This document shows, one piece after another, positions 951 through 31,354 of a DNA stretch of 64,000 nt (positions are counted from its first letter, which is position 1; every line of letters starts with the position of its first letter). The DNA lies in the NCBI RefSeq assembly GCF_054482595.1, contig NZ_CM137008.1; one strand, written 5' to 3'. The translations under genes and the position numbers were made by a program. The notes beneath the pieces were generated by a model. The model did no database searches, was not told the DNA's origin, and saw only the letters and a list, made by a program, of their open reading frames with translations.

Positions 951-1844
951 CTACAGCGAAATACAGGTCCCCGCTTCGCCCGCCAGCGTCTCTTCAATTC
1001 GCGATAACGCCCCAATCCACGCGGGTTTACCACGGCTTCTGACATAACCACTCACCGCCGTTACCTTCGGCCCCATCGAACCATCGGCTTTGGCAAATGG
1101 CGCTAACTCATCCGGTGTGGCATGGCGAATGGCACGTTGCTGCGGCGTTCCCCAGTTTTCATATACCGCATCAGCATCGGTGAGGATCACCAGTCCATCG
1201 GCATTAATCTGCTCGGCGAGCAACGCAGCAGCGAGATCTTTATCAATCACCGCTTCACTCCCTGCCCCGTCTTCCGTCACAGGCACACCGCCGCCGCCAC
1301 TGCAAATCACCACATGCCCCTCTTTGAGCAACAACTCGATGGCTTCGCTGTCGAGAATTTTACGCGGTTGCGGAGACGCCACCACCCGGCGTAAATATTT
1401 ACCATCACGTTTCATCTGCCAGCCGTAAGCCGCTTCCAGTGCCTCTTGTTCTTCTGGCTGATAAACCGGACCAATAAATTTCTCTGGCTGCAAAAACGCC
1501 GGATCATCAGGCGAAACCTCAATGCGCGTCAGCACCGTCGTGACAGGCGGCATCTGCGGCTGTGCGCTCAAACTTTGCGCCAGCATATAGCCAATCATCC
1601 CCTGACTTTCCGCCACCAGCACATCCAGCGGATACGGTTCTACCTCTTTCCACGCCAGATTCTGCAATGCCAGCAGCCCCACCTGCGGCCCGTTGCCGTG
1701 AACAATCGCCAGCCGATAAGAACGGGCCAGCCGTGCCAGCGCGGGTACAGCACTGGCGATATTGCGATATTGATTTTCTGCCGTCAGCGCCTCACCGCGC
1801 TGAAGCAAGGCATTGCCCCCAAGAGCTACAACCAGTGTTTTCAT
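951..1844 (-). CDS. ybcF: carbamate kinase-like protein
   Basis: 297-aa ORF, N-terminus [13 protein letters not shown] typical of carbamate kinase; last gene of fdrA-ylbE-ylbF-ybcF cluster. Confidence 0.9.
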
Positions 1845-18456: not shown

Positions 18457-19272
18457 TTATGGATGTGCTTTCAGTCCCAACGCCGTGCTGATATCGCGGG
18501 CGGTGTCTCTGACCAGCTCACCCTGACTGACAAAACGGTCTTCTGTCAGTCTTGATGAAGGCCCGGAGATGGAGATAGCGGCAACAACGCTACCTACATC
18601 ATCGTAAATTGCTGAAGCTATGCAATTCAGACCTACAACATGCTCTTCTTTATCTACGGTATAGCCCAGTTCACGCGCTTGTTCCAGGTCCTTCAGCAAG
18701 GTGGGCATATCCACAAACGTAGTTGGCGTAAACTGCTGCAAACCGGTTTGCAGAATGATGCTCATCAACTCCTCTTCCGCCAGCGGATAAAGCAGCGCTT
18801 TGCCCGCACCGGAAGCATGCAGTGGCAGACGACTGCCCAGTGGCGCACACATCCTGACCATCGATTTACACTCTAACTGACCAATTAATACCGCTTCATT
18901 GCCGTTACGGATCGCGACATTGACCGTTTCGCCGGAAAGTAACATCAGGCGGCGCATAAACGGCCCGGCGACGGAGAGGACATCGCGGTTATGGATGTAC
19001 GCTGCACCGACGTTAAAGACACCTAATCCTATATGCCACCAGCCTAACTGACTGTCCTGATAGACAAAATCCGCTGCCTGTAAAACCTTCAGCAAGCGAA
19101 AGGTCGTGGAGAGCGGCAAATCCAGATTGAGAGAAATATCGCTAACCGACGAACTTCCCCCACTTTTTTCCAGATATTGCAGAATCGCAATTCCCCGCTC
19201 TAATGCCTGTGCGCCCTTCTGTGCCACAGGCTCCGCCTGTCCTGGCCTGCCGCGCCGTCTAACTTCCGTCAT
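18457..19272 (-). CDS. allR: IclR-family repressor of the allantoin regulon
   Basis: 271-aa ORF; IclR-type HTH plus effector domain; synteny. Confidence 0.9.
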
Positions 19273-19349
19273 ACCTACGTTAACTCCGACCTACAAGTGA
19301 GCATAAACAATGAACAATTAGTTTATCTTATGCAAGTCGGTTGCAGGCG

Positions 19350-19832
19350 TCACGCAAAACAGAGTTCCTGTTCAGGAATACTTTCAACATCACAGTTGTC
19401 ACTGCCGCCGCGATCGATGGTCAGAAAATCGGTGACGCGCTGCCAGGCGAAAAGTGGGTGATGCCAGACGTTACGATGGTAATTCACTCCCTGTTCGCCG
19501 TTGGTAATAAACGCCCGCAGGGTTGACAGGTCTGGTTTGTCGTCACCTAACGCCACGACCACCACAAACACCTCACCTTTCATCGGGATAAAGGCCTGAG
19601 TACCCAGCGGATGACGTTCGAGTTCGTGAATGGTCAGCGGCAGATTCGCCGGTTGCGCGCGGTTAATGCTGATAAGCGTACGGTCTTGCTCAAGAATCTC
19701 AACCAGCGCCAAATCGTGGTAACGCTCCACCAGGCCATTGTTAATATGGAAAAAATCCCGTTGCTGCGTTTCGATTACGTCGCCATAAGCACTAAAGGCT
19801 TCCTGACTTAACGGTAATACCTGAAGTTTCAT
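19350..19832 (-). CDS. allA: ureidoglycolate lyase
   Basis: 160-aa ORF; synteny, divergent from allS. Confidence 0.9.
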
Positions 19833-19937
19833 CTTTTTGTCCTTGTAACATAATTCCGTTCAACCAGCGCCGACCGGTCAGCTTGGTTTCAATAACAGGC
19901 AATCTAAAACCTTAAGAGAACAACATCAATACAAAAG

Positions 19938-19954
19938 TTGGAATATTTTTCCAA
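19938..19954. promoter_or_regulatory. AllR operator in the allA/allS divergent intergenic region
   Basis: Palindrome TTGGAATATTTTTCCAA; one mismatch from the gcl box. Confidence 0.7.
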
Positions 19955-20061
19955 AACTAGATTTAGTCCACAAATTGAACAGGGTTATCATGTAAAAATA
20001 CTGATAAATCAGAGGATAAGAAAATCACGCAACTTGCGGATTTAAAAGGGGATACCTGAAG

Positions 20062-20988
20062 ATGTTCGATCCAGAAACCTTGCGGACTTTCATTGCGGTT
20101 GCTGAAACAGGAAGTTTTTCAAAAGCGGCAGAACGATTATGTAAAACCACGGCGACGATCAGTTATCGCATTAAACTTCTGGAAGAGAATACCGGAGTAG
20201 CGCTGTTTTTCCGTACGACTCGCAGCGTGACGTTGACAGCGGCTGGCGAGCATCTACTTTCCCAGGCCAGAGACTGGCTGAGCTGGCTGGAAAGTATGCC
20301 AAGCGAGCTGCAACAGGTGAATGATGGCGTGGAACGCCAGGTGAATATTGTCATCAACAACCTGCTCTACACCCCCCAGGCCGTCGCCCAGTTGCTGGCG
20401 TGGCTGAATGAACGTTACCCCTTTACCCAGTTTCACATCTCCCGACAAATCTATATGGGCGTCTGGGACTCGCTATTGTACGAAGGTTTTGCGCTGGCTA
20501 TCGGCGTCACGGGAACTGAGGCGCTGGCAAATACCTTTAGTCTTGATCCCTTAGGATCGGTGCAATGGCGATTTGTCATGGCGGCGGATCATCCGCTGGC
20601 GAACGTTGAAGAGCCGCTAACAGAAGCGCAGTTGCGGCGCTTTCCGGCGGTCAATATTGAAGACAGCGCCCGCACCTTAACCAAACGCGTCGCCTGGCGA
20701 TTGCCAGGGCAAAAAGAGATTATTGTTCCCGATATGGAAACGAAAATCGCCGCCCATCTGGCGGGCGTTGGCATTGGTTTTTTGCCAAAATCACTTTGCC
20801 AGTCAATGATCGATAATCAACAACTGGTCAGCCGGGTAATCCCAACGATGCGCCCTCCTTCGCCATTGAGTCTGGCATGGCGCAAATTTGGCAGCGGCAA
20901 AGCGGTAGAAGATATTGTGACCTTGTTTACCCAGCGCAGGCCGGAAATCAGCGGATTTTTAGAAATTTTCGGCAACCCACGCAGTTAA
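20062..20988 (+). CDS. allS: LysR-type activator of allDCE
   Basis: 308-aa ORF with N-terminal LysR HTH. Confidence 0.9.
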
Positions 20989-21041
20989 AAATCAAGTTTC
21001 CTTGCGCGTTGGCGCGTAAAATAGCGCGCAAGCTGATTTGA

Positions 21042-22151
<1,110 letters not shown>

Positions 22152-22266
22152 TGAGGGACGTATTTGTATTAGTCGCGACTTGATCTGACACATGGCCTTG
22201 AAAGGTTGAGAGTTACCGGTTTTGATATGAGTGTCGAATCCTTATCCAAAACAAGAGGTAACTCTC

Positions 22267-22638
22267 ATGCTTCATACTGCCAATCCCGTCATCAAACACA
22301 AAGCCGGTTTGCTCAATCTGGCTGAAGAACTCAGCAACGTATCAAAAGCCTGTAAAATCATGGGCGTTTCGCGTGATACGTTTTATCGTTACCGCGAACT
22401 GGTCGCTGAAGGCGGTGTGGATGCGCAGATTAATCGTAGTCGCCGCGCTCCTAACCTTAAGAACCGTACCGATGAGGCAACTGAACAGGCTGTTGTTGAT
22501 TACGCCGTCGCTTTCCCGACACATGGTCAGCACCGGGCCAGCAACGAGCTGCGTAAACAGGGGGTTTTTATCTCCGACAGTGGTGTCCGTTCTGTCTGGT
22601 TACTCCATAACCTTGAGAATCTCAAAAGACGATACTGA
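22267..22638 (+). pseudogene. ylbG: truncated transposase-like HTH protein (ylbG-like)
   Basis: 123-aa product from ATG 22267 with AAGAGGT RBS; HTH segment (MGVSRDTFYRYRE) typical of IS transposase N-termini; no catalytic domain follows. Confidence 0.6.
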
Positions 22639-22648
22639 ACAAATTTTA

Positions 22649-22786
22649 TCAGGTGACGTTCCGTAAAAAGTTGTATGGAGTTCTCGATGCAGTCGGCGCG
22701 ACTATCAGTACCCCCGCTGAACCCTGGACTATCGGGCCGCCGTACTGGGGCATGTCACCCTGGCGTGCCGCTGGTTTTCCGCTAAT
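22649..22786 (-). pseudogene. relic of an rhs 5' end (start codon ATT)
   Basis: Minus-strand translation [26 protein letters not shown] matches rhs N-terminus [26 protein letters not shown] at 27827; diverges after about 30 codons, stop at 22649. Confidence 0.55.
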
Positions 22787-23152
22787 GGTTTATTTCCTCT
22801 TTCTTTCCCGGCAAGAATTTATTTTAATCCGGAAGGATTATTTATTTTCAGATAGGGACTCACATTAAACACGTAACATTTTAATTAATGCATGGCTGAA
22901 TATGTATTACACAATGTCAGATATCGTAAAAGACCAGTGCAATTCTATGTAAACTCTCTGACTGTTCATTTTATTTGTTGCTTCAGGGTCGGAACTCACC
23001 CTCAATAAACAACTGAATACGAGTAGATATTCATCGTCTGAGCTATATGGCTTTACACAATAGCCGACATGTCTTTTCTCAGTCAGGATTTTTACTTTTC
23101 CTCACTACGAAGTTGACGACTTCGATATGGGATAGACTCTTAATTCAAGCAA

Positions 23153-23644
23153 TTACTCTGCACAAGCATCAGGCAATCCAGCTCCAATATTTGTTATAAA
23201 ATAATGCGTAACATTAATTTCACCAACAAAAAAAAGATTTACGCTATCCCCTTGCCCTGGTATTTTACCATATTTACACCACACTTTTTTTGTATCTGGA
23301 TCATTCTTTGATACGATTTTCGCCACTTGTTCCCTGGCCCTCACCGTCAATGTTTTCTTAAACCTCCCCCCATCATCGATTGTTAGGGAAAAATAAGAAA
23401 AAAAATAATCATCTTCTACATTTGTGGATATTGATATATCCACCGCTACGTGCGGAAAAAAATCTGGGAGCCATGTAAAAACTCCATCATTTTCTGGTAT
23501 TGCCATATAGTTTATGTAATGCTTACTTACAAGAGATTCATCTTTGTGTAAATAAAGATAAGTAGTCACGCATAAAAAAACAACGATTATAATAGCAAAA
23601 ATAAATATTACCATCTTTGAGATGTTACTTGAGATAGCCACCAT
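23153..23644 (-). CDS. putative Rhs immunity protein, N-terminal membrane anchor
   Basis: 163-aa AT-rich ORF whose ATG lies 20 nt inside the rhs 3' end; hydrophobic N-terminus ([15 protein letters not shown]). Confidence 0.7.
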
Positions 23645-26600
23645 CTTGTAAAGCCTTTATCGTTTTTTTATGCTCTGGATTAATATAATCAATACATCTA
23701 TTTGAGCAATCTTGTGTTAATGGACATGTCAACCCATGTTCATTTACAGCCAAGTCTTTTTTATTATCTTCAATCATCTCAGAATGGGATAACTTTACTT
23801 TTCTGCCGTACATACCGAACATATTTAACCCGTAATCTCTAATCTCTTTTTCATAACCCAGCCCTTTCGCCGATCGGCTAACACCAGCGTCATTTAATTT
23901 AGACACTCGACAAAATGCCATACAATGGAAAAATTGATCAGTCCCACCTAAATTTAATCTCTTCATATCATCATAAGTATCAGATAATATATCCCATGCT
24001 CTTTGATGGTTTAGTTGTTCTTTTTTTCGCATTAACGCTACATCTGCAGGACTTAACCCTAATGGATCAATACCATTCACCGGATACGCATACAGACTCC
24101 ATCCCCCCGCCAGCCCAATCGGGTCCTGAGTAATATATCGTCCCAGCAACGGATTGTAGTACCGGTTCCGGTTATAATACAGCCCCGACTCCTCATCATA
24201 CTGCTGCCCTGGCAGACGGTACGGCTGATACACATGATGCGGGTTCTCCTCATTAAGCTGGTTGCCCCATTCATCATATTCCGCGCTCCACGCCGTATTG
24301 CCGTCTTCGCTGATAAGCGCCAGCGGCAGTCCCCGGTGGTCGCAGTGATAAAGATGAGCTTTTCGCGCCGGTGTGTATTCCGGCTCCACCTGTCTGGCCA
24401 GTTGCTCCACCGTCAGCCCGCACTGCGCAAGCCACGCCCGGCTTTCACTGCTCACGCGGTCTGCCCGGATTTCTTCCTCCAGTCTGTCCAGCAGCCGCAC
24501 CAGTTCAGCCGGAAATACCACGCCGTGCCCGTCCTCGCTCCCTTCCTGCTGCAGCTTCTCCGCCAGGCTGCGGCGCTGCGCTTTCTCCCGCTCGCCGTTG
24601 TCTGTTTCGATGCGGATGAGCGGCGCGAAGCTCCCCGGCTGATATACCGTCTGGATACGCGTGGTGTCGGTCTGTACCGTCGTCAGCCGGTCGCCGTCCC
24701 ACCCGTACCACGTCACCTCCGGTTTCCGCGACAGCGACATCCATCCCGTCAGGTCACGCTCGCGACGCCACACCCGTTTCCCTGTCCGGCGACCCAGCGG
24801 GTCGTAAAGGTATCGGCTCTCGACCAGCGGCTCCTCATATTGGATACGGATGTAATGGACCAGGCGGTGCAGGCTGTCGTAATGGTAGTGATGGGTGCGC
24901 TCGTCGTCCGTCCGTATCACACCCGCCGGGATGCGGTCCGTCTTCTCCGTCAGTCTGCCGTATTCATCGTAGTGGTAAACATAGTGCGCATCCTTCGCGA
25001 TGCGGTTATCCGGCCACACTGTGAGGGTACTGTCCGGGTGCAGCTCCGGGTCCGGCAGGCGGTTTCCCGCCGGGTCGGTGGCATACGGGATGCGGATGTC
25101 CAGGTCCGGTGCGAGGGTACGCACGCTCTCCAGCCTGCCCGTGGCGCTGTAGCCGTATTCCCGCGTCTGTCGCGGGCCGCTGATGCGCACCAGGTCGCCG
25201 TTGTCATTCCACCCGTAGTCACGGTCATACACCAGGCTGTTCAGGTGCTGGCTCTGTAACTGGCCTGCGGGGGTGTATGTGCTGGTCAGTTTATATGCGG
25301 CATTACTGCCTGCCATGCTGCCAAAGCTGCGCACCGTCTCCCGGTGCATGCGGTCGCGCGTGTACTCCAGCAGCGGCGTGTCGCCAAGCTTCATGCCCGC
25401 CAGATAACCGCTGCCGTAGGTCAGCCACTCCACCGGCGGCAGGCTGTCCGGCGTGACGCGGTTTGCCAGCCCCTGTTCGTTGTAGGCGTGTGTTGTCTCA
25501 TGCTGCCACAGCAGTTCCCCCGTCTCCGGGTTCTCCACCGTCTGCCGTTCGCCGGTCAGGCGGCCCTTATCGTCGTAGCCGTAGTGGACAGCGACACGGT
25601 GGCCTTCGCTCAGGTGGCTGATGTCTGTCAGCCAGCCGTGGTCATCATACTGCCACTGCTCTGCCGGTTCGCCGTTCACCGTGCGGTGAGTGATACGGTC
25701 CGATTCATCGTAGTACCAGAGGGTGACAAGCCCCTCATCTTCACTCTGCGTGAGTTTTCCGGTCAGGTCATAATGATAACGCTGCGTCCGCCCGTCAAAG
25801 CCGCCCTGCTGTACCAACCGGTCCAGCGCATCGTAGCTGAAGTCGCTGTGGCTGCCGTTCTCGTTAGTCAGACTGATGACACGTCCGGCAGCATCGTACT
25901 CCATACTGCGCGTCAGCCCGCCCTGCGTGGTGCTGACCGCCTTTCCCCACGCATCGTACTGTGTCTCGCTCCGGTTGCCGTCCGGGGTGATAACGGCAGT
26001 CAGGTCGCCTGCGGCGTTGTACTCATACTGCGTTTCACGGCCCTGTGCGTCTTTCACCGAGGTTAACCGGCCACGGTTGTCATAGTGGCGGTAAAGGCTG
26101 ATACCTTCCTCGCGGTGAACCGCCGTCATCTGGCCGAAGCGGTCGTATTCATAGCGGGTCTGGTAGCCCGAGCAGTCGGTGAACGCCAGCAACTGACCGT
26201 AGCGGCTCCACGTCATCTGCCGGGTGCTGCCCGTCGCATCTGTTGTCGTGGCCGGTAATTCACTGTGCGCATCATCATAGCGGTAGCGTACTGTCTCCCC
26301 GCTGCGCGATGTCTCCGTTACCAGCCTGTCCAGTTCATCATATGCCCGGCGGCTCTCCAGCCCGTCCGGGGACACCACCGCCGTCAGCTGGTTCCCGTCG
26401 TTATAGTAAAATTTCGTCTCCCGCCCGTCCGGTGTGGTGATGTCCGTGATATCGCCGGACACCACATTCAGACCGTACTCTGTCCGCCGTCCCGCCGCGT
26501 CCGTCTGCGCCGTGAGCCTTCCTGCCGCGTCATACCCGCTGTGCGTGACGCTGCCATCCGCCAGTTCTTTTTTCACCACCCGTTTCAGCCCGCCTTCACC

Positions 26601-27827
26601 TTCTGTATGCAGCACCTCACGCCGGTTCAGGCTGTCGGTGACGGTGATGCGGTCCTGCTCATACTGGTAGCGGTAACTCAGGCCTGCCGGGTTAAGCTGC
26701 TCCACCACCCGCCCGGTATCGTCGTAGCGGTAGCGCATCTCCGGCCTTCCCGCATAACGGTGCCCCACCATCCGGCCCGGGTGCTGCGCGTCATACGTGA
26801 AAGCGCGCACCTGTGTCCCGCTGCGGTCATATACCGCCAGCAGTTCACCGGCTTCCGTATACGTGTACCGCGCCAGTGGCGCTCCGGGCAGGCTCTCCGG
26901 GTATGCCGGGTCGTGCATCAGCCACACCGCCAAAAGGCGGATACCCCTGTCGGGGCCGTATTCGGTACCGGGCAGTGTGTCGGGGAACGCTGAGGCTGAG
27001 AGAGGGCGGGGTGTGTCAGGGGAAGATAAGGAAGCGGTGCGCTGTTTACGGGCCTCTTCCGCACGCTGCGCCTGCGTGGTCAGCACCAGACGGAACTCCC
27101 GCCCGGCACCGTCCGTCACGCCGGTGATTTCCCCGGCCAGGTCACCGGCGGCCTCACGCCGGTACGTCAGCGTCCGCCCGAAGCGGTCTGCCAGCCCGGT
27201 AAGCACCCGGTACGGCGGCAGCGGCGCTGGCAGTACGTCCTCAGCACCCGGCACCAGCTCTGACCACCCCAGTATCCACCACGGCCCCTGTGCGCTGTTG
27301 GTCGCCAGGTAAAGATGCGGGCTTAACCGGATATCCGGCGGCAGCGACGCCCACAGCCGTGCCAGCGTATGGCCGTCCGGCTGCGTTGCCTTACCGCCAC
27401 GCACCAGCCACAGGGACTCGCTGCGGCTGTACACCGCCTCACCCGGCAGCAGCGGCTCAAAGTGAATGCTCCGTCCGCCGTTGTCGTTGAGTACCAGTGC
27501 ATCATCGCGTATCTGTAAGCGGATATCAGAAGGCGCTTTCCAGCCGGGGCCAAAAATCCCCACCGGTGCAGGCGTCTTCGTCCGGTAGCTGCTGTAGGTG
27601 CGGGAGAGAATGAACGGCAGCGGGCCGGGCAGCGCAAGGTCCGTCTCGCCGGGCAGCACCTTCGCCCCCAGCAGCGGATTTACCGGGTTGCCCGAAGTCA
27701 TCCCGCCCGGACACACCGAGCACGCCACGCCAGTTGGCGCGCCAATTCTTACACCTGCCGAACCCTGGACAATGGGACCGCCATACTGAGTCATATCTCC
27801 CTGACGCGCCGCTGGTTTTCCGCTCAT
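23625..27827 (-). CDS. rhsD: Rhs-family polymorphic toxin: PAAR-like N-terminus, YD-repeat core, variable C-terminal toxin domain
   Basis: 1400-aa ORF; many YD repeats; core ends at [10 protein letters not shown] (about 24045-24060) followed by about 143 aa of AT-rich unique sequence; sits between ybbP and selU. Confidence 0.92.
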
Positions 27828-28256
27828 ATAAAGTGCCCTTTTAGTTATTGTTCATATCCCTGTGTTAGCAACAAAAAAAATAAAATGACACACAAGACCA
27901 GCTAATGTATTTATATATTTTTCACATAAACTTATTTGTTCTCAATCAACAACAACTGTTATTACAGGTCACTTTCAATATTTTATTAAACTAACATTTT
28001 TAGCACAGATGAATTCATCATCAACAAATTCACTATATGGATAATATCCATTCAACGCATATGATTTATGATTTTATTAGTCTGAGTTATTTTTGTAGGG
28101 CTATATTTAAAATCAATAAACTCCACCGATTCAGATTAATATCAGCAATAGAAAGATAGGAAATCACCAATTCAATAACATCATCAATGAAACATATTGT
28201 AGAATTAATTTAAACAAGGCGTTCCATTCAACCAGAACGCCCCTTATTTACTCTCA

Positions 28257-30671
28257 TCACCCCGCAAACTGCCTGAACAGCGCCTTACCCTTAACCAGTC
28301 GCGCACCCAGCCAGCCGCCGAAAAGCGACAGCAGCAGCGCTCCGCTGCACGGCAGAACAATCCACAATCGCCAGTCTGGCTCCCACGGAAAATCAAACAC
28401 TTTCGCCTGCAACACTGCCAGCGCCGTTTCCGCACCAATTGCGGCCACCAGGCCGGAAACAAACCCAAGCATGGCGAACTCACACCACAACGTGGTACGC
28501 AGCAGTTTTTTCCCCGCACCGAGTGTGCGCCACACCACCAGCTCCTGGTGGCGCTGACGCATACCCACCTGCACCTGTGCCAGCAACAGCAACATACCGC
28601 AGGCGGTGACCAGCACCACCATCACCTCCAGCGCCCGACTTACCTGCTCCAGCACCTGACCGACCTGTTTTAAAATCGCGCCAATGTCTAACAGGCTAAT
28701 GGTCGGGAACTGGCGGTTGAGTTGCGTCAACATGCCGTTGCCATTCTCCCAGCGGAAACTGGTAAGCCAGCTCTGCGGTTGCCCGTCTAATGCCCCTTCC
28801 GGGAAAATAAAATAGAAATTAGGCCGCAGACTTTCCCAGTCCACTTTGCGCAGGCTGGTCACTTTAGCGCGGAACTCCTGGGTATCGCCCATAAAAGTCA
28901 CGGTATCACCGAGGGCAACCTTTAAGCGTTTCGCCAGCCCCTCTTCCATCGACACTTCATCGGCTTTTGGCGGCCAGTTACCGGCGACAATCGGATTATG
29001 ATCGGGCCGCGTATTTTGCCAGGTAAGATTGAGTTCGCGGTTAAGCGCCTCATCTTCATTACCTTCTGTCGGCTTATCGTTAATCGCCGTCAGCCGCGCC
29101 CGCACCACCGGATAAAACGATTCCGGGACTATCTGATGTTCCGCGAGGAACGCTTTTAGCGGTGCTACCTGTTCTGTGGCGATGTTAATTAAAAAGTAGT
29201 TCGGGCTTTCTGGAGGTAGCTGCTGCTGCCAGCGGTCGAGCAGATCACCACGCAACACCAGCAGCAGTGCCAGCAGCATAAAGGAGAGCGAAAATGCCGA
29301 AAGCTGGCTTAACGTTGACCACGGCTGACGTAACAGGCGGCTGACCGCCAGGCGCAGAGGCAGCGATTTCAGCGTCATGCGGCGAAGTACATTCAGCAGC
29401 ATCCAGCCCAGCACACCGCACAGCAAAGCCAGTACTACCGCGCCCGCCAGCACCGCCCAGAGCAGCATACTGCCCCCCATTAATCCGGCGAGCAGCAGCA
29501 CAACCACTACACTGACAATCGGCAGATAAAACTTCAGCGGCCAGACGTTCGCTACCACATCATTACGTAATACGCGTAAAGGCTGCGTTGCCAGCAACAA
29601 GCGGTATGGTCGTAGCCCCACCAGCAGCGAGATGACCGTCATGGTGCCCAGCGCCCATAGCCACGGCCAGAGGCTGGCTGGCGGTAGTGCAGCAGGCAGA
29701 ACGGGCTTGAGCAGCACCATCAACACGTTTTCGAACAACAGGCCTATCGCCCCACCGGTAACGGCTGAAAGCGTCAGCACCATCAACCACTGACCGACGA
29801 TTAGCTTACGCAGTTGCGCTCGCCCTGCCCCCAGCGTTTTGAGGATCGCCACCAGATCGTAGCGACTGCGACAGTAATGATTCATCGCTACCGCCACTGC
29901 TGCCACTGCCAGCAGCAAGGTCAGAAGCGCCGAAAGCAGCAGGAACTGTTGCGAGCGTTCCATCGATCGCCCCAGCGCGCCTTCGTCCTGTTCCAGACCG
30001 TACCAGCGTTGTTCGGGTTTAAGCTGGGGTAACAACCATTTCTCATAGCCGTCGAGCTGGTTCTCGTTGCCGCCGAATTTATAACGCCAGGTGACCCGAC
30101 TCCCCGGCTGCACGGCTCCGGTTTTATCGACATCCGCCAGATTCATCATCAGACGCGGAGCCATCTGGAAGGGGTTAAAACCGGAATCCGGTTCCTGAAT
30201 CACTTCTCCGGCAATCCGCAAGGTGGCATCGCCCACGTCAATGGTGTCGCCCGTTTTCAGGTTAAGCAGCGCCATCAGGCGTGGGGCCAGCAATACGCTG
30301 CCCGCCTGCGGTTTCAGGCCAGGGGGATTAGTTTGCAGATCGCCATACATCGGGTAGATATCATCCACCGCTTTGACGTTCGCCAGCTGCGGTGTGTCGC
30401 CTGCAAATGTCATGGTGGCGAAAGTCAGCTGCTTGCCGACTTTCAGGCCGCGCTTTTGCGCTTCCTCCAGCCATGCTTGCGGCACTTCGCGCGAACTGCG
30501 CAACGCCCGATCGCCCGCCATAAACTCCCGGCTTTGTTGGCTTAAGCCCTTCTCCATGCGATCGCTGATATTGCCCAGCGCCAGCACGCAGGCCACCGCC
30601 AGGCTTAGCGCCAGCCAGACAATTAATAGCGACGGCGAACGCCATTCGCGCCAGAACCAACGTGCAATCAT
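28257..30671 (-). CDS. ybbP: ABC transporter permease, FtsX/MacB-like
   Basis: 804-aa membrane ORF; 4-nt overlap with upstream ybbA. Confidence 0.9.
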   Translation of the reverse strand: MIARWFWREWRSPSLLIVWLALSLAVACVLALGNISDRMEKGLSQQSREFMAGDRALRSSREVPQAWLEEAQKRGLKVGKQLTFATMTFAGDTPQLANVKAVDDIYPMYGDLQTNPPGLKPQAGSVLLAPRLMALLNLKTGDTIDVGDATLRIAGEVIQEPDSGFNPFQMAPRLMMNLADVDKTGAVQPGSRVTWRYKFGGNENQLDGYEKWLLPQLKPEQRWYGLEQDEGALGRSMERSQQFLLLSALLTLLLAVAAVAVAMNHYCRSRYDLVAILKTLGAGRAQLRKLIVGQWLMVLTLSAVTGGAIGLLFENVLMVLLKPVLPAALPPASLWPWLWALGTMTVISLLVGLRPYRLLLATQPLRVLRNDVVANVWPLKFYLPIVSVVVVLLLAGLMGGSMLLWAVLAGAVVLALLCGVLGWMLLNVLRRMTLKSLPLRLAVSRLLRQPWSTLSQLSAFSLSFMLLALLLVLRGDLLDRWQQQLPPESPNYFLINIATEQVAPLKAFLAEHQIVPESFYPVVRARLTAINDKPTEGNEDEALNRELNLTWQNTRPDHNPIVAGNWPPKADEVSMEEGLAKRLKVALGDTVTFMGDTQEFRAKVTSLRKVDWESLRPNFYFIFPEGALDGQPQSWLTSFRWENGNGMLTQLNRQFPTISLLDIGAILKQVGQVLEQVSRALEVMVVLVTACGMLLLLAQVQVGMRQRHQELVVWRTLGAGKKLLRTTLWCEFAMLGFVSGLVAAIGAETALAVLQAKVFDFPWEPDWRLWIVLPCSGALLLSLFGGWLGARLVKGKALFRQFAG

Positions 30672-31354
30672 GCTTCCTCCTGCAACTGCCCGTTCACCAG
30701 CCGTAAGCAGCGGTCGCAGCGTGCCGCCAGTTGCAGGTCGTGGGTCACCATAATCAACGTGGTGCCATGTTCACGGTTGAGGGAAAACAGCAGGTCGGCA
30801 ATTTTATCGCCCGTCTGGCGGTCAAGGTTGCCGGTGGGTTCGTCGGCAAACAGCACATCAGGTCGACCATTAAAGGCTCGTGCCAGCGCCACTCGTTGCT
30901 GTTCACCGCCGGAAAGCTGTGCCGGAAGATGATCCAGACGTTTACCCAGCCCTAACTGTTCGAGCAACGCTTTCGCCCCGTTACGACTTTCCGCGCTACT
31001 CTCACCGCGCAGCAGAGCCGGAAGCTCGACGTTTTCCAGCGCGTTAAGGGTAGGAATTAACATAAATGACTGAAAAACAAAGCCGACGTGCTTCGCGCGC
31101 AACTTTGCCCGCGCTTCTTCGTCCATATTATGTAGCGGTTGTCCCACCAGACTCACTTCGCCACTGCTGCCGTCATCAAGCCCGGCGAGGATCGCCAGCA
31201 AGGTTGACTTACCCGATCCCGACTCGCCCACCAGTGCGATGGTCTCGCCACGTTTGACAACCAGCTCAACTCCGGTGAGGATGGAGAGTTCATGCTCCCC
31301 CTGACCGACGGACTTCTTAAGATGATGAACTTCAACAATGTTTTCCGCTGGCAT
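30668..31354 (-). CDS. ybbA: ABC transporter ATP-binding protein
   Basis: 228-aa ORF with Walker A GESGSGKST and LSGGEQQR signature. Confidence 0.9.
   Translation of the reverse strand: MPAENIVEVHHLKKSVGQGEHELSILTGVELVVKRGETIALVGESGSGKSTLLAILAGLDDGSSGEVSLVGQPLHNMDEEARAKLRAKHVGFVFQSFMLIPTLNALENVELPALLRGESSAESRNGAKALLEQLGLGKRLDHLPAQLSGGEQQRVALARAFNGRPDVLFADEPTGNLDRQTGDKIADLLFSLNREHGTTLIMVTHDLQLAARCDRCLRLVNGQLQEEA

Follow-up and report, generated by a model that had tools for sequence, protein, structure and literature searches.

What does the variable C-terminal end of an Rhs protein at the rhsD site of Escherichia coli do, and is the small gene that overlaps it its partner? The question is raised by a 64,000-nucleotide stretch of contig NZ_CM137008.1 (RefSeq assembly GCF_054482595.1), referred to below as the window, in which a 1400-aa rhs gene is followed on the same strand by a 163-aa open reading frame (ORF). 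Profile comparisons make it almost certain that the last 142 residues of the Rhs protein, here called the tip, belong to the prok-SAA family and are homologous to serum amyloid A (SAA) of vertebrates. Tip and ORF very probably constitute a toxin-immunity pair, in which the ORF product, a YbbD-type protein, is predicted to neutralise the tip. The features concerned are the following.

23625..27827, minus strand: rhs gene, 1400 aa (ORF list), located between ybbP and ylbG/selU/allS at the rhsD chromosomal site
24054..24278, minus strand: Rhs-associated core, Rhs residues 1184-1258, ending in DPxGL (TIGR03696, E 7.7e-20)
24054-24083, minus strand: DPLGL-bearing end of the core, presumed autoproteolytic release site of the tip (sequence reading)
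23628..24053, minus strand: putative C-terminal toxin tip, 142 aa, Rhs residues 1259-1400, equal to the tip of the K-12 orphan ylbH
23676..24005, minus strand: SAA-homologous (prok-SAA/Lipocone) core, tip residues 17-126 (Pfam SAA, alignment A1, profile against PDB)
23153..23644, minus strand: ybbD-type gene, 163 aa, putative cognate immunity gene (ORF list, NF011298, YbbD_head relatives)
23552..23623, minus strand: N-terminal transmembrane (TM) anchor of the immunity protein, approx. residues 8-31 (maximum of the 19-residue Kyte-Doolittle (KD) mean, AlphaFold2 (AF2) helix)
23156..23548, minus strand: predicted periplasmic alpha/beta YbbD head, residues 33-163, with Cys123 and Cys161 (AF2, Foldseek)

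The NCBIfam model RHS_core spans Rhs residues 1-1258 (2718 bits) with YD repeats present, and Rhs_assc_core covers residues 1184-1258, which places the end of the core at residue 1258. Proteins of the Rhs/Tc type free their tip by autoproteolytic cleavage after DPxGL. The initial annotation had described a unique tail of 143 residues behind a core ending at about 24045-24060. The unique tail was recovered, with a length of 142 residues and with the terminal motif of the core at 24054-24083, approx. 10-25 nt away from the position first given. At the junction the GC content drops sharply from 0.60-0.66 in the core to 0.30-0.38 across tip and ORF (0.30-0.42 for the tip taken separately), in agreement with the AT-rich character ascribed to both. 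A homologous domain stands directly after the Rhs-associated core in 10/10 longer homologues examined, and the reading of the variable tail behind the DPxGL core as a putative Rhs toxin tip was thereby strengthened.

Relationship of the tip to serum amyloid A

Taken alone, the tip matched the Pfam family SAA (PF00277) with an E-value of 3.3e-4 (21.4 bits, model positions 9-84 of 102), and as a single sequence it matched SAA chains of the PDB weakly. No family was matched in an NCBIfam scan of the tip. A word-indexed search returned only E. coli, Hafnia and fragment sequences, and the wider family was reached by an exhaustive HMMER search against 1.84 billion representative proteins, which yielded 93 homologues; of these, 38 had an E-value of 1e-10 or less. 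Alignment A1 comprises 58 non-redundant tip domain segments with 24-81% identity to the query. The A1 profile matched eight distinct SAA sequences of the PDB with E-values of 6.1e-14 (7zh7), 1.6e-11 (human SAA1, 4ip8) and down to 7e-7; apart from SAA, the best E-value was not below 0.08. PF00277 was also matched individually by 38/58 members of A1 at E<=1e-3, the best match having an E-value of 5.9e-24. The earlier statement that the tail is without a recognisable motif did not survive these comparisons.

The published Prok-SAA table includes close relatives, among them WP_074823867.1, with which the tip shares 63% identity (E 1e-45). The prok-SAA family was defined by Burroughs, Nicastro & Aravind (eLife 2025, PMC12419801) within the SAA-Wnt (SAW) clade of the Lipocone superfamily, and it is listed there as a polymorphic-toxin tip of type VI secretion system (T6SS) and MuF toxins with 'TM+Imm' partners. 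The same authors argued for a descent from bacterial toxin to animal SAA, predicted SAA-type domains to be enzymes acting on lipid head groups and concluded that Lipocone toxins act in the periplasm or within the membrane. Besides the sequence identity, the window module shares with this family the invariant His, Glu and Asp (plus Asn and Gly), the paired cysteines and the position at the C-terminus of T6SS/Rhs toxins with a TM-anchored immunity partner. It differs in belonging to a subfamily without the Arg of the clade motif sNxxGR and with an extra Cys-Pro just after this motif (Cys in 48/58 and Pro in 44/58 A1 sequences).

Five polar residues of the tip, D39, H43, E70, D100 and N104 (D1297, H1301, E1328, D1358 and N1362 in Rhs numbering), are invariant in 58/58 A1 sequences, and D73, D96 and G107 (D1331, D1354 and G1365) are found in 56-57/58, D73 and G107 each in 57/58. 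The ancestral Lipocone site was inferred to consist of a His (H2), a Glu (H3), an Asp (H4), an acidic residue ending H3 and a polar residue plus Gly in H4 (PMC12419801). The tip agrees with this pattern through H43, E70 and D100, with D73 as fourth acidic residue. An hhalign comparison of A1 with 24 Min-Wnt sequences from the data of PMC12419801 gave a probability of 85% and an E-value of 6.3e-6, with D39/H43, E70, D100, N104 and G107 falling on the H, E, D, N and G that do not vary in Min-Wnt. An invariant polar constellation of this kind is typical of an active site, and catalysis by the tip is predicted.

A twin CX3C motif, formed by C44/C48 and C116/C120, was present in 57-58/58 A1 sequences. 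Helical hairpins with twin CX3C motifs are held together by inter-helix disulfides. By analogy, we infer that the four cysteines of the tip form two such disulfides, and the tip would therefore have to fold in an oxidising compartment. The domain as a whole is hydrophilic (grand average of hydropathy -0.70) and has no TM segment, no 19-residue window exceeding 1.6 in the KD scan.

Vertebrate SAA (PF00277; 4ip8, 4q5g, 7zh7) shares homology with the tip along ~90 residues, in which His, Glu, Asp, Asn and Gly coincide, but is devoid of all four CX3C cysteines (FHARGNYDA in place of FHCMAFCRV). Unlike the tip, it has neither an Rhs carrier nor an immunity partner; it is a secreted apolipoprotein of the acute phase, for which no enzymatic activity is known. 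As the His is retained in vertebrate SAA and the Cys is lost, the adjacent His-Cys of the tip is better read as a catalytic His followed by a structural Cys. A match of the tip to Peptidase_C7 (E 0.04) was discarded as noise, as 0/58 family members reached E<=1e-3.

The overlapping gene and its relatives

According to the ORF list, rhs and the 163-aa ORF share 20 nt (23625-23644), exactly the overlap reported initially. The ORF product matches NCBIfam NF011298 end to end (E 2e-112), and the Pfam family PF26610 (YbbD_head) is precomputed for relatives with 97% and 70% identity as well as for the neighbour protein of locus L004 described below. It contains one strongly hydrophobic N-terminal segment, where the KD 19-residue mean peaks at 3.03 (residues 8-26), and the hydrophobic anchor that had been proposed is thus confirmed. 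An AF2 model calculated with the family alignment (pLDDT 82) consists of a TM helix at residues 6-32 and a compact alpha/beta domain with about seven strands and three helices. Foldseek against AFDB50 retrieved entries named 'YbbD head domain-containing protein' (E 4e-25 to 1e-4, TM-score up to 0.81) from Enterobacterales, Delftia, Xanthomonas, Photobacterium, Clostridium, Streptococcus and Fusobacterium, several of which are annotated as lipoproteins.

The YbbD family was widened by profile search to 82 proteins, and 22 members were aligned. In 22/22 the N-terminus bears a hydrophobic anchor or else a lipobox, and a conserved Cys pair separated by ~38 residues (C123/C161 here) is found in 19/22. 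The membrane anchor points to an envelope or periplasmic site, as the initial annotation had hinted.

Synteny was examined on contigs encoding tips of falling similarity, and DNA was recovered for four loci. A YbbD-like ORF was located directly downstream of the homologous tip in each of these.

L004-L006, tip identity 55%: 173-aa YbbD_head protein downstream, 1-nt overlap
L007, tip identity 50%: 168-aa protein downstream, 4-nt overlap
L008, tip identity 47%: uncalled 171-aa ORF (1226..1741), 2 nt after the tip stop codon
L009, tip identity 38%: 143-aa protein with a weak YbbD_head match, 14-nt overlap

Because YbbD-like ORFs follow homologous tips in all four loci, the YbbD ORF is the best candidate for a cognate immunity gene, and the proposal made from the overlap and the anchor gained support over a wide range of tip similarity.

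Three of these loci show further features. The YbbD-like ORF at L008 (1226-1741, plus strand) stands after an orphan SAA-like tip and was missed in the source annotation. At L009 (1256-1687, plus strand) the TM helix of the YbbD homologue is replaced by a lipobox (LLAAC), and the Cys pair is missing; the mode of anchoring has thus switched within one immunity family. L004 (CP029992.1, 1800-6200) is an orphan array downstream of another Rhs, arranged in the order Ntox16 fragment, DUF6714 protein, SAA-like orphan tip with YbbD_head protein, and TseH-like protein with Imm58. By its gene content, it can be described as a multi-cassette toxin/immunity 'graveyard'.

The ORF also matches NCBIfam NF007301 (PRK09781, 181 aa, 'hypothetical protein') with an E-value of 1e-16 at residues 34-153, which implies a putative paralogous YbbD-like family in enterobacteria. 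An identity of NF007301 with YbfC of K-12, which would have made ybfO a second SAA-like orphan, was ruled out, as neither YbfC, a protein with a signal peptide, nor the YbfO tip is related. Two known immunity folds were considered for YbbD and rejected. The immunity domain linked to Min-Wnt and prok-SAA (type iii) consists of one helix and four strands with four absolutely conserved cysteines (PMC12419801). In contrast to this SAA/Wnt-linked domain, the YbbD head has two cysteines only, and these are absent in 3/22 members. A BamE-like immunity protein (two-helix hairpin plus three strands) was dismissed, since the topology of YbbD is not BamE-like.

Tip and ORF are present in 2737/5426 complete E. 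coli genomes (at least 80% coverage, 95-100% identity), and the segment 22600-24300 of the window was matched in 2730/5426 complete genomes, likewise at a coverage of at least 80%. With a junction-spanning query, the tip was found fused to a full Rhs in 963 complete genomes including O157:H7, and roughly 1770 of the 2737 carriers hold it as a K-12-like orphan without Rhs body. Commensal, environmental and laboratory E. coli are among the carriers. The frequency of the module, the full-length NF011298 match and the occurrence of homologues of both tip and ORF in other genera place the arrangement beyond chance.

Proposed action of the module and competing explanations

We propose that the E. 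coli rhsD element carries a polymorphic-toxin module composed of a soluble prok-SAA tip, which is sister to vertebrate SAA among the Lipocones, and a YbbD immunity protein. The tip would be kept unfolded inside the Rhs cocoon, freed by autoproteolysis after DPLGL and fired by a T6SS encoded elsewhere in the genome. In the oxidising periplasm of the target it would fold, with C44/C48 and C116/C120 forming two helix-stapling disulfides, and the need for these disulfides would keep it inactive in the cytoplasm of the producer. At the outer face of the inner membrane, a pocket of His43, Glu70, Asp100 and Asn104 would then attack a phosphate ester in the head group of a lipid. As TelC and colicin M suggest by analogy, this lipid would most likely be a carrier linked to undecaprenyl-(pyro)phosphate, for instance lipid II, with a phospholipid as the alternative; cleavage of either would block envelope synthesis. 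In sibling cells YbbD, anchored in the inner membrane with a periplasmic head, would bind and block the incoming toxin. We infer release after DPLGL, T6SS delivery, oxidative folding, head-group attack and YbbD neutralisation alike, and regard the mechanism as a whole, from T6SS delivery through periplasmic head-group cleavage to blocking by YbbD, as probable with modest confidence.

Two known systems served as models. TelC-TipC of Streptococcus intermedius, in which TelC is a lipid II phosphatase of a secretion system of type VII (T7SS), contains the only characterised Lipocone toxin according to the summary of Whitney et al. 2017 given in PMC12419801. As described in that summary, TelC is assigned to the same superfamily as the tip, is soluble and active only outside the cytoplasm, and is countered by a membrane-associated extracytoplasmic immunity protein. 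In contrast to the tip, it is secreted by the LXG/T7SS route and faces an unrelated immunity fold, and a sequence relation between the two toxins was not detectable. Colicin M would resemble the proposed mode of action as a periplasmic toxin that cuts lipid II at the undecaprenyl-phosphate linkage. The colicin M immunity protein Cmi is small and has an N-terminal inner-membrane TM helix and a periplasmic, disulfide-containing domain.

Several observations weigh against the proposed mechanism. In the window tip the clade motif sNxxGR reads VNEHGL, with Leu for Arg; N104, preceded by A or V, and G107 of the motif are kept in 58/58 and 57/58 A1 sequences, and the Arg position is occupied by a hydrophobic residue (L/I/A/F/M) in most of the subfamily. 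The fold given for the family is a cone of four helices with a short fifth one. An AF2 model predicted from the tip sequence alone is all-helical and poor (pLDDT 47), and thus unusable for active-site geometry or disulfide pairing; a Foldseek search with this low-confidence model gave SAA as the top six PDB matches, all of them non-significant (E 0.24-1.4, TM-score 0.3-0.4). An hhalign comparison of A1 with 20 prok-TelC sequences resulted in a probability of 0.2%, i.e. no detectable homology, and no TelC chain was among the PDB matches of the A1 profile at E<=10. Because TelC homology escaped both searches, the lipid II analogy is taken from the published superfamily argument alone. The Pfam match to PAAR_motif is weak and partial (E 0.091, Rhs residues 3-20), and no T6SS gene or T6SS-sized cluster was found within the window; T6SS delivery is therefore deduced from the family. 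As K-12 has an orphan tip and a frameshifted ybbD, the module is dispensable in some strains. A confident profile match to a characterised toxin family had been named at the outset as what would refute the initial reading; the match obtained goes half of that way, to a published family whose toxin role is a prediction. We found no biochemical or genetic test of any prok-SAA toxin and no functional work on ylbH or ybbD in the literature consulted, and the effector-immunity screen of Geller et al. 2024 makes no mention of SAA-like tips.

A relationship between an Rhs protein and SAA had been noticed before. In an in silico study of enterohaemorrhagic E. coli (EHEC) from 2020 (PMC7216683), the C-terminus of RhsD (z0651) of O157:H7 strain EDL933 was modelled by I-TASSER on human SAA1 (4ip8A, TM-score 0.623) and z0654 was proposed as its immunity protein RhsDI. 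Seven PAAR-Rhs proteins of O157:H7 were reported to contain PF00277, which was read as host mimicry or aggregation (PMC7216683). EHEC RhsD/RhsDI belongs to the same chromosomal element and has the same kind of tip on a full-length Rhs. The difference lies in the interpretation: nothing was found for the immunity protein in that study, whereas the evidence presented here points to a predicted antibacterial enzyme with a periplasmic immunity protein.

Both interpretations of the EHEC study lead to alternatives for the tip. In the main rival, the tip is an SAA-like domain that binds lipids without being an enzyme and would act by lipid extraction, by membrane insertion or perturbation, or by aggregation. 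SAA has established binding functions only (lipoprotein, retinol, OmpA), SAA3-retinol structures occur among the PDB matches, the Arg of sNxxGR is absent in the subfamily, and the EHEC authors suggested that 'RhsD could auto-aggregate' (PMC7216683). However, the five polar residues are invariant in 58 sequences down to 24% identity and align with H/E/D/N of Min-Wnt in an active-site pattern, and the KD scan of the hydrophilic tip gave no amphipathic or TM signal, so that we consider a purely binding domain unlikely. A host-directed effector that mimics serum amyloid A in inflammation or chemotaxis, and is no antibacterial toxin, deserves very little credence, even though 'chemotaxis, inflammatory response' was assigned to z0651 from the I-TASSER match to 4ip8A (PMC7216683). 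In every locus examined the tip is followed by a tightly coupled, co-varying immunity-type gene, a hallmark of interbacterial toxins; commensal, environmental and laboratory strains carry the module alike, and the descent argued in PMC12419801 runs from bacterial toxin to animal SAA.

The site of action and the functional state of the module can be questioned as well. Most characterised Rhs tips (nucleases, ADP-ribosyltransferases, NADases) act in the cytoplasm, and the YbbD TM helix is flanked by residues of weak charge bias, with one Lys before and K/D/E/K after it. The tip might thus work on a soluble substrate or the inner leaflet in the target cytoplasm, the TM segment tethering an immunity domain that faces the cytoplasm. 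The lipoprotein signal LLAAC of distant YbbD homologues is compatible only with a domain outside the cytoplasm, though, relatives in AFDB are annotated as lipoproteins, and Cys pairs are conserved in both the toxin and the immunity domain; a cytoplasmic site of action is very improbable to us. Slightly more weight, still within the range of the quite unlikely, is given to an inert relic, an old tip left at the rhsD site, whose expression or delivery has ceased and which has no function in this strain. It would suit the orphan tips of roughly 1770/2737 carriers, the frameshift in K-12 ybbD and the window without T6SS genes, and the promoter/terminator scan gave counts no higher than in shuffled sequence, with promoter matches at consensus level only. 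Yet the tip is in frame with a complete 1400-aa Rhs, the immunity ORF is intact, the same fusion recurs in 963 complete genomes including O157:H7 and the invariant residues are all kept. Pairwise dN/dS values versus K-12 are below 1 (0.59 for the tip and 0.26 for the immunity gene) and are derived from 17 and 20 substitutions, too few to conclude.

For the periplasmic toxin neutralised by YbbD, we tentatively put forward a more specific combination, which we hold to be doubtful as a whole: the tip would be an active enzyme on a head group exposed to the periplasm other than that of lipid II (phospholipid, C55-P/C55-PP, O-antigen or enterobacterial common antigen carrier), the CX3C disulfides would serve as a redox switch that turns the enzyme on only once it has reached an oxidising periplasm, and the YbbD_head fold would be one not yet catalogued for Lipocone toxins. 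If this is true, the activity of the E. coli pair would reveal the long-sought biochemical activity of SAA.

Parts of this picture are already known, namely the SAA similarity of EHEC RhsD (2020), the prok-SAA toxin family (2025), YbbD_head in Pfam and the annotation of ylbH and ybbD in K-12. Half of the complete E. coli genomes encode a homologue of human SAA and, for it, a dedicated partner anchored in the membrane. What SAA, a major acute-phase protein, does at the molecular level is still under debate, and since the catalytic-type residues are shared with vertebrate SAA, an activity of the E. coli tip would be informative on SAA. The locus offers a well-documented experimental target in a tractable organism and a handle on the function of SAA-type domains.

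Alleles at the rhsD site and neighbouring features

The locus is the E. coli rhsD site. In the best-matching genome the genes follow in the order ybbP, 'RHS element core protein', which is the RefSeq label of the 1400-aa gene, hypothetical protein, ylbG, mnmH/selU and allS. Window positions 31000..24082 align to K-12 MG1655 520087-526997, spanning ybbP and rhsD as far as its core extends, and positions 24293..19000 are collinear with K-12 527982..533283 at 98.3%. Between the aligned blocks K-12 has an extra ~985 bp with its own rhsD tip and ybbC, and the K-12 pseudogenes ylbH, ybbD and ylbI come after these extra bases. The translation of ylbH is an Rhs C-terminal fragment with a tip 92% identical in amino acids to that of the window, and K-12 ybbD corresponds to the 163-aa gene but is frameshifted by 1 nt near codon 80. 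The module described here is ylbH/ybbD, located on the main Rhs instead of an orphan. The two collinear loci differ in that in K-12 the SAA-like tip is displaced to the orphan and ybbD is frameshifted, while the window has the tip on the main Rhs and an intact ybbD.

Approx. 210 bp of Rhs core are duplicated in K-12, at the end of rhsD (526787-526997) and at the start of ylbH (527982-528190), and the window holds a single copy of this repeat at 24082-24293. The fused and the orphan arrangement could be interconverted by simple recombination between the repeats, or they may reflect insertion of a tip/immunity cassette in K-12. At the junction of core and tip (24054-24090), just before the presumed autoproteolytic site, the window is 9 bp (3 aa) shorter than K-12 ylbH. 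A 701-bp junction query produced 710-bp matches in most other carriers including O157:H7, which suggests that these share the 9-bp insertion of ylbH. Compared with EHEC/O157:H7, the window allele shows the 9-bp junction deletion, and about 4-6% of the nucleotides differ.

Two further features of the rhs element were located.

27459..27827, minus strand: N-terminal delivery region, Rhs residues 1-123, a PAAR-like start followed by DUF6531
22690..22790, minus strand: rhs 5'-end remnant equal to K-12 ylbI, at the downstream edge of the Rhs element (sequence reading; RefSeq incomplete CDS, i.e. coding sequence; K-12 pseudogene)

Within the delivery region, DUF6531 was matched strongly by Pfam (E 1.5e-18) at Rhs residues 46-123. 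Antisense to the GC-rich rhs core, long ORFs of 341, 240, 242 and 171 aa were found on the plus strand at 24234-27312. High GC content and stop-codon depletion most likely account for these ORFs, which would then be artefacts and not genes. Between ybbP and the rhs start, positions 27830-28250 form a very AT-rich intergenic leader (GC 0.26-0.35), whose composition would fit silencing of the H-NS type. The sole promoter-like match on the rhs strand (27945-27917) falls inside this leader. In the rhs remnant at 22690-22790 ATT has taken the place of the ATG start codon, and a sequence resembling a ribosome binding site, AGGAAATA, is retained upstream. The truncated helix-turn-helix gene ylbG comes after the remnant, which has the look of a scar, left either by a second rhs copy once present or by recombination.

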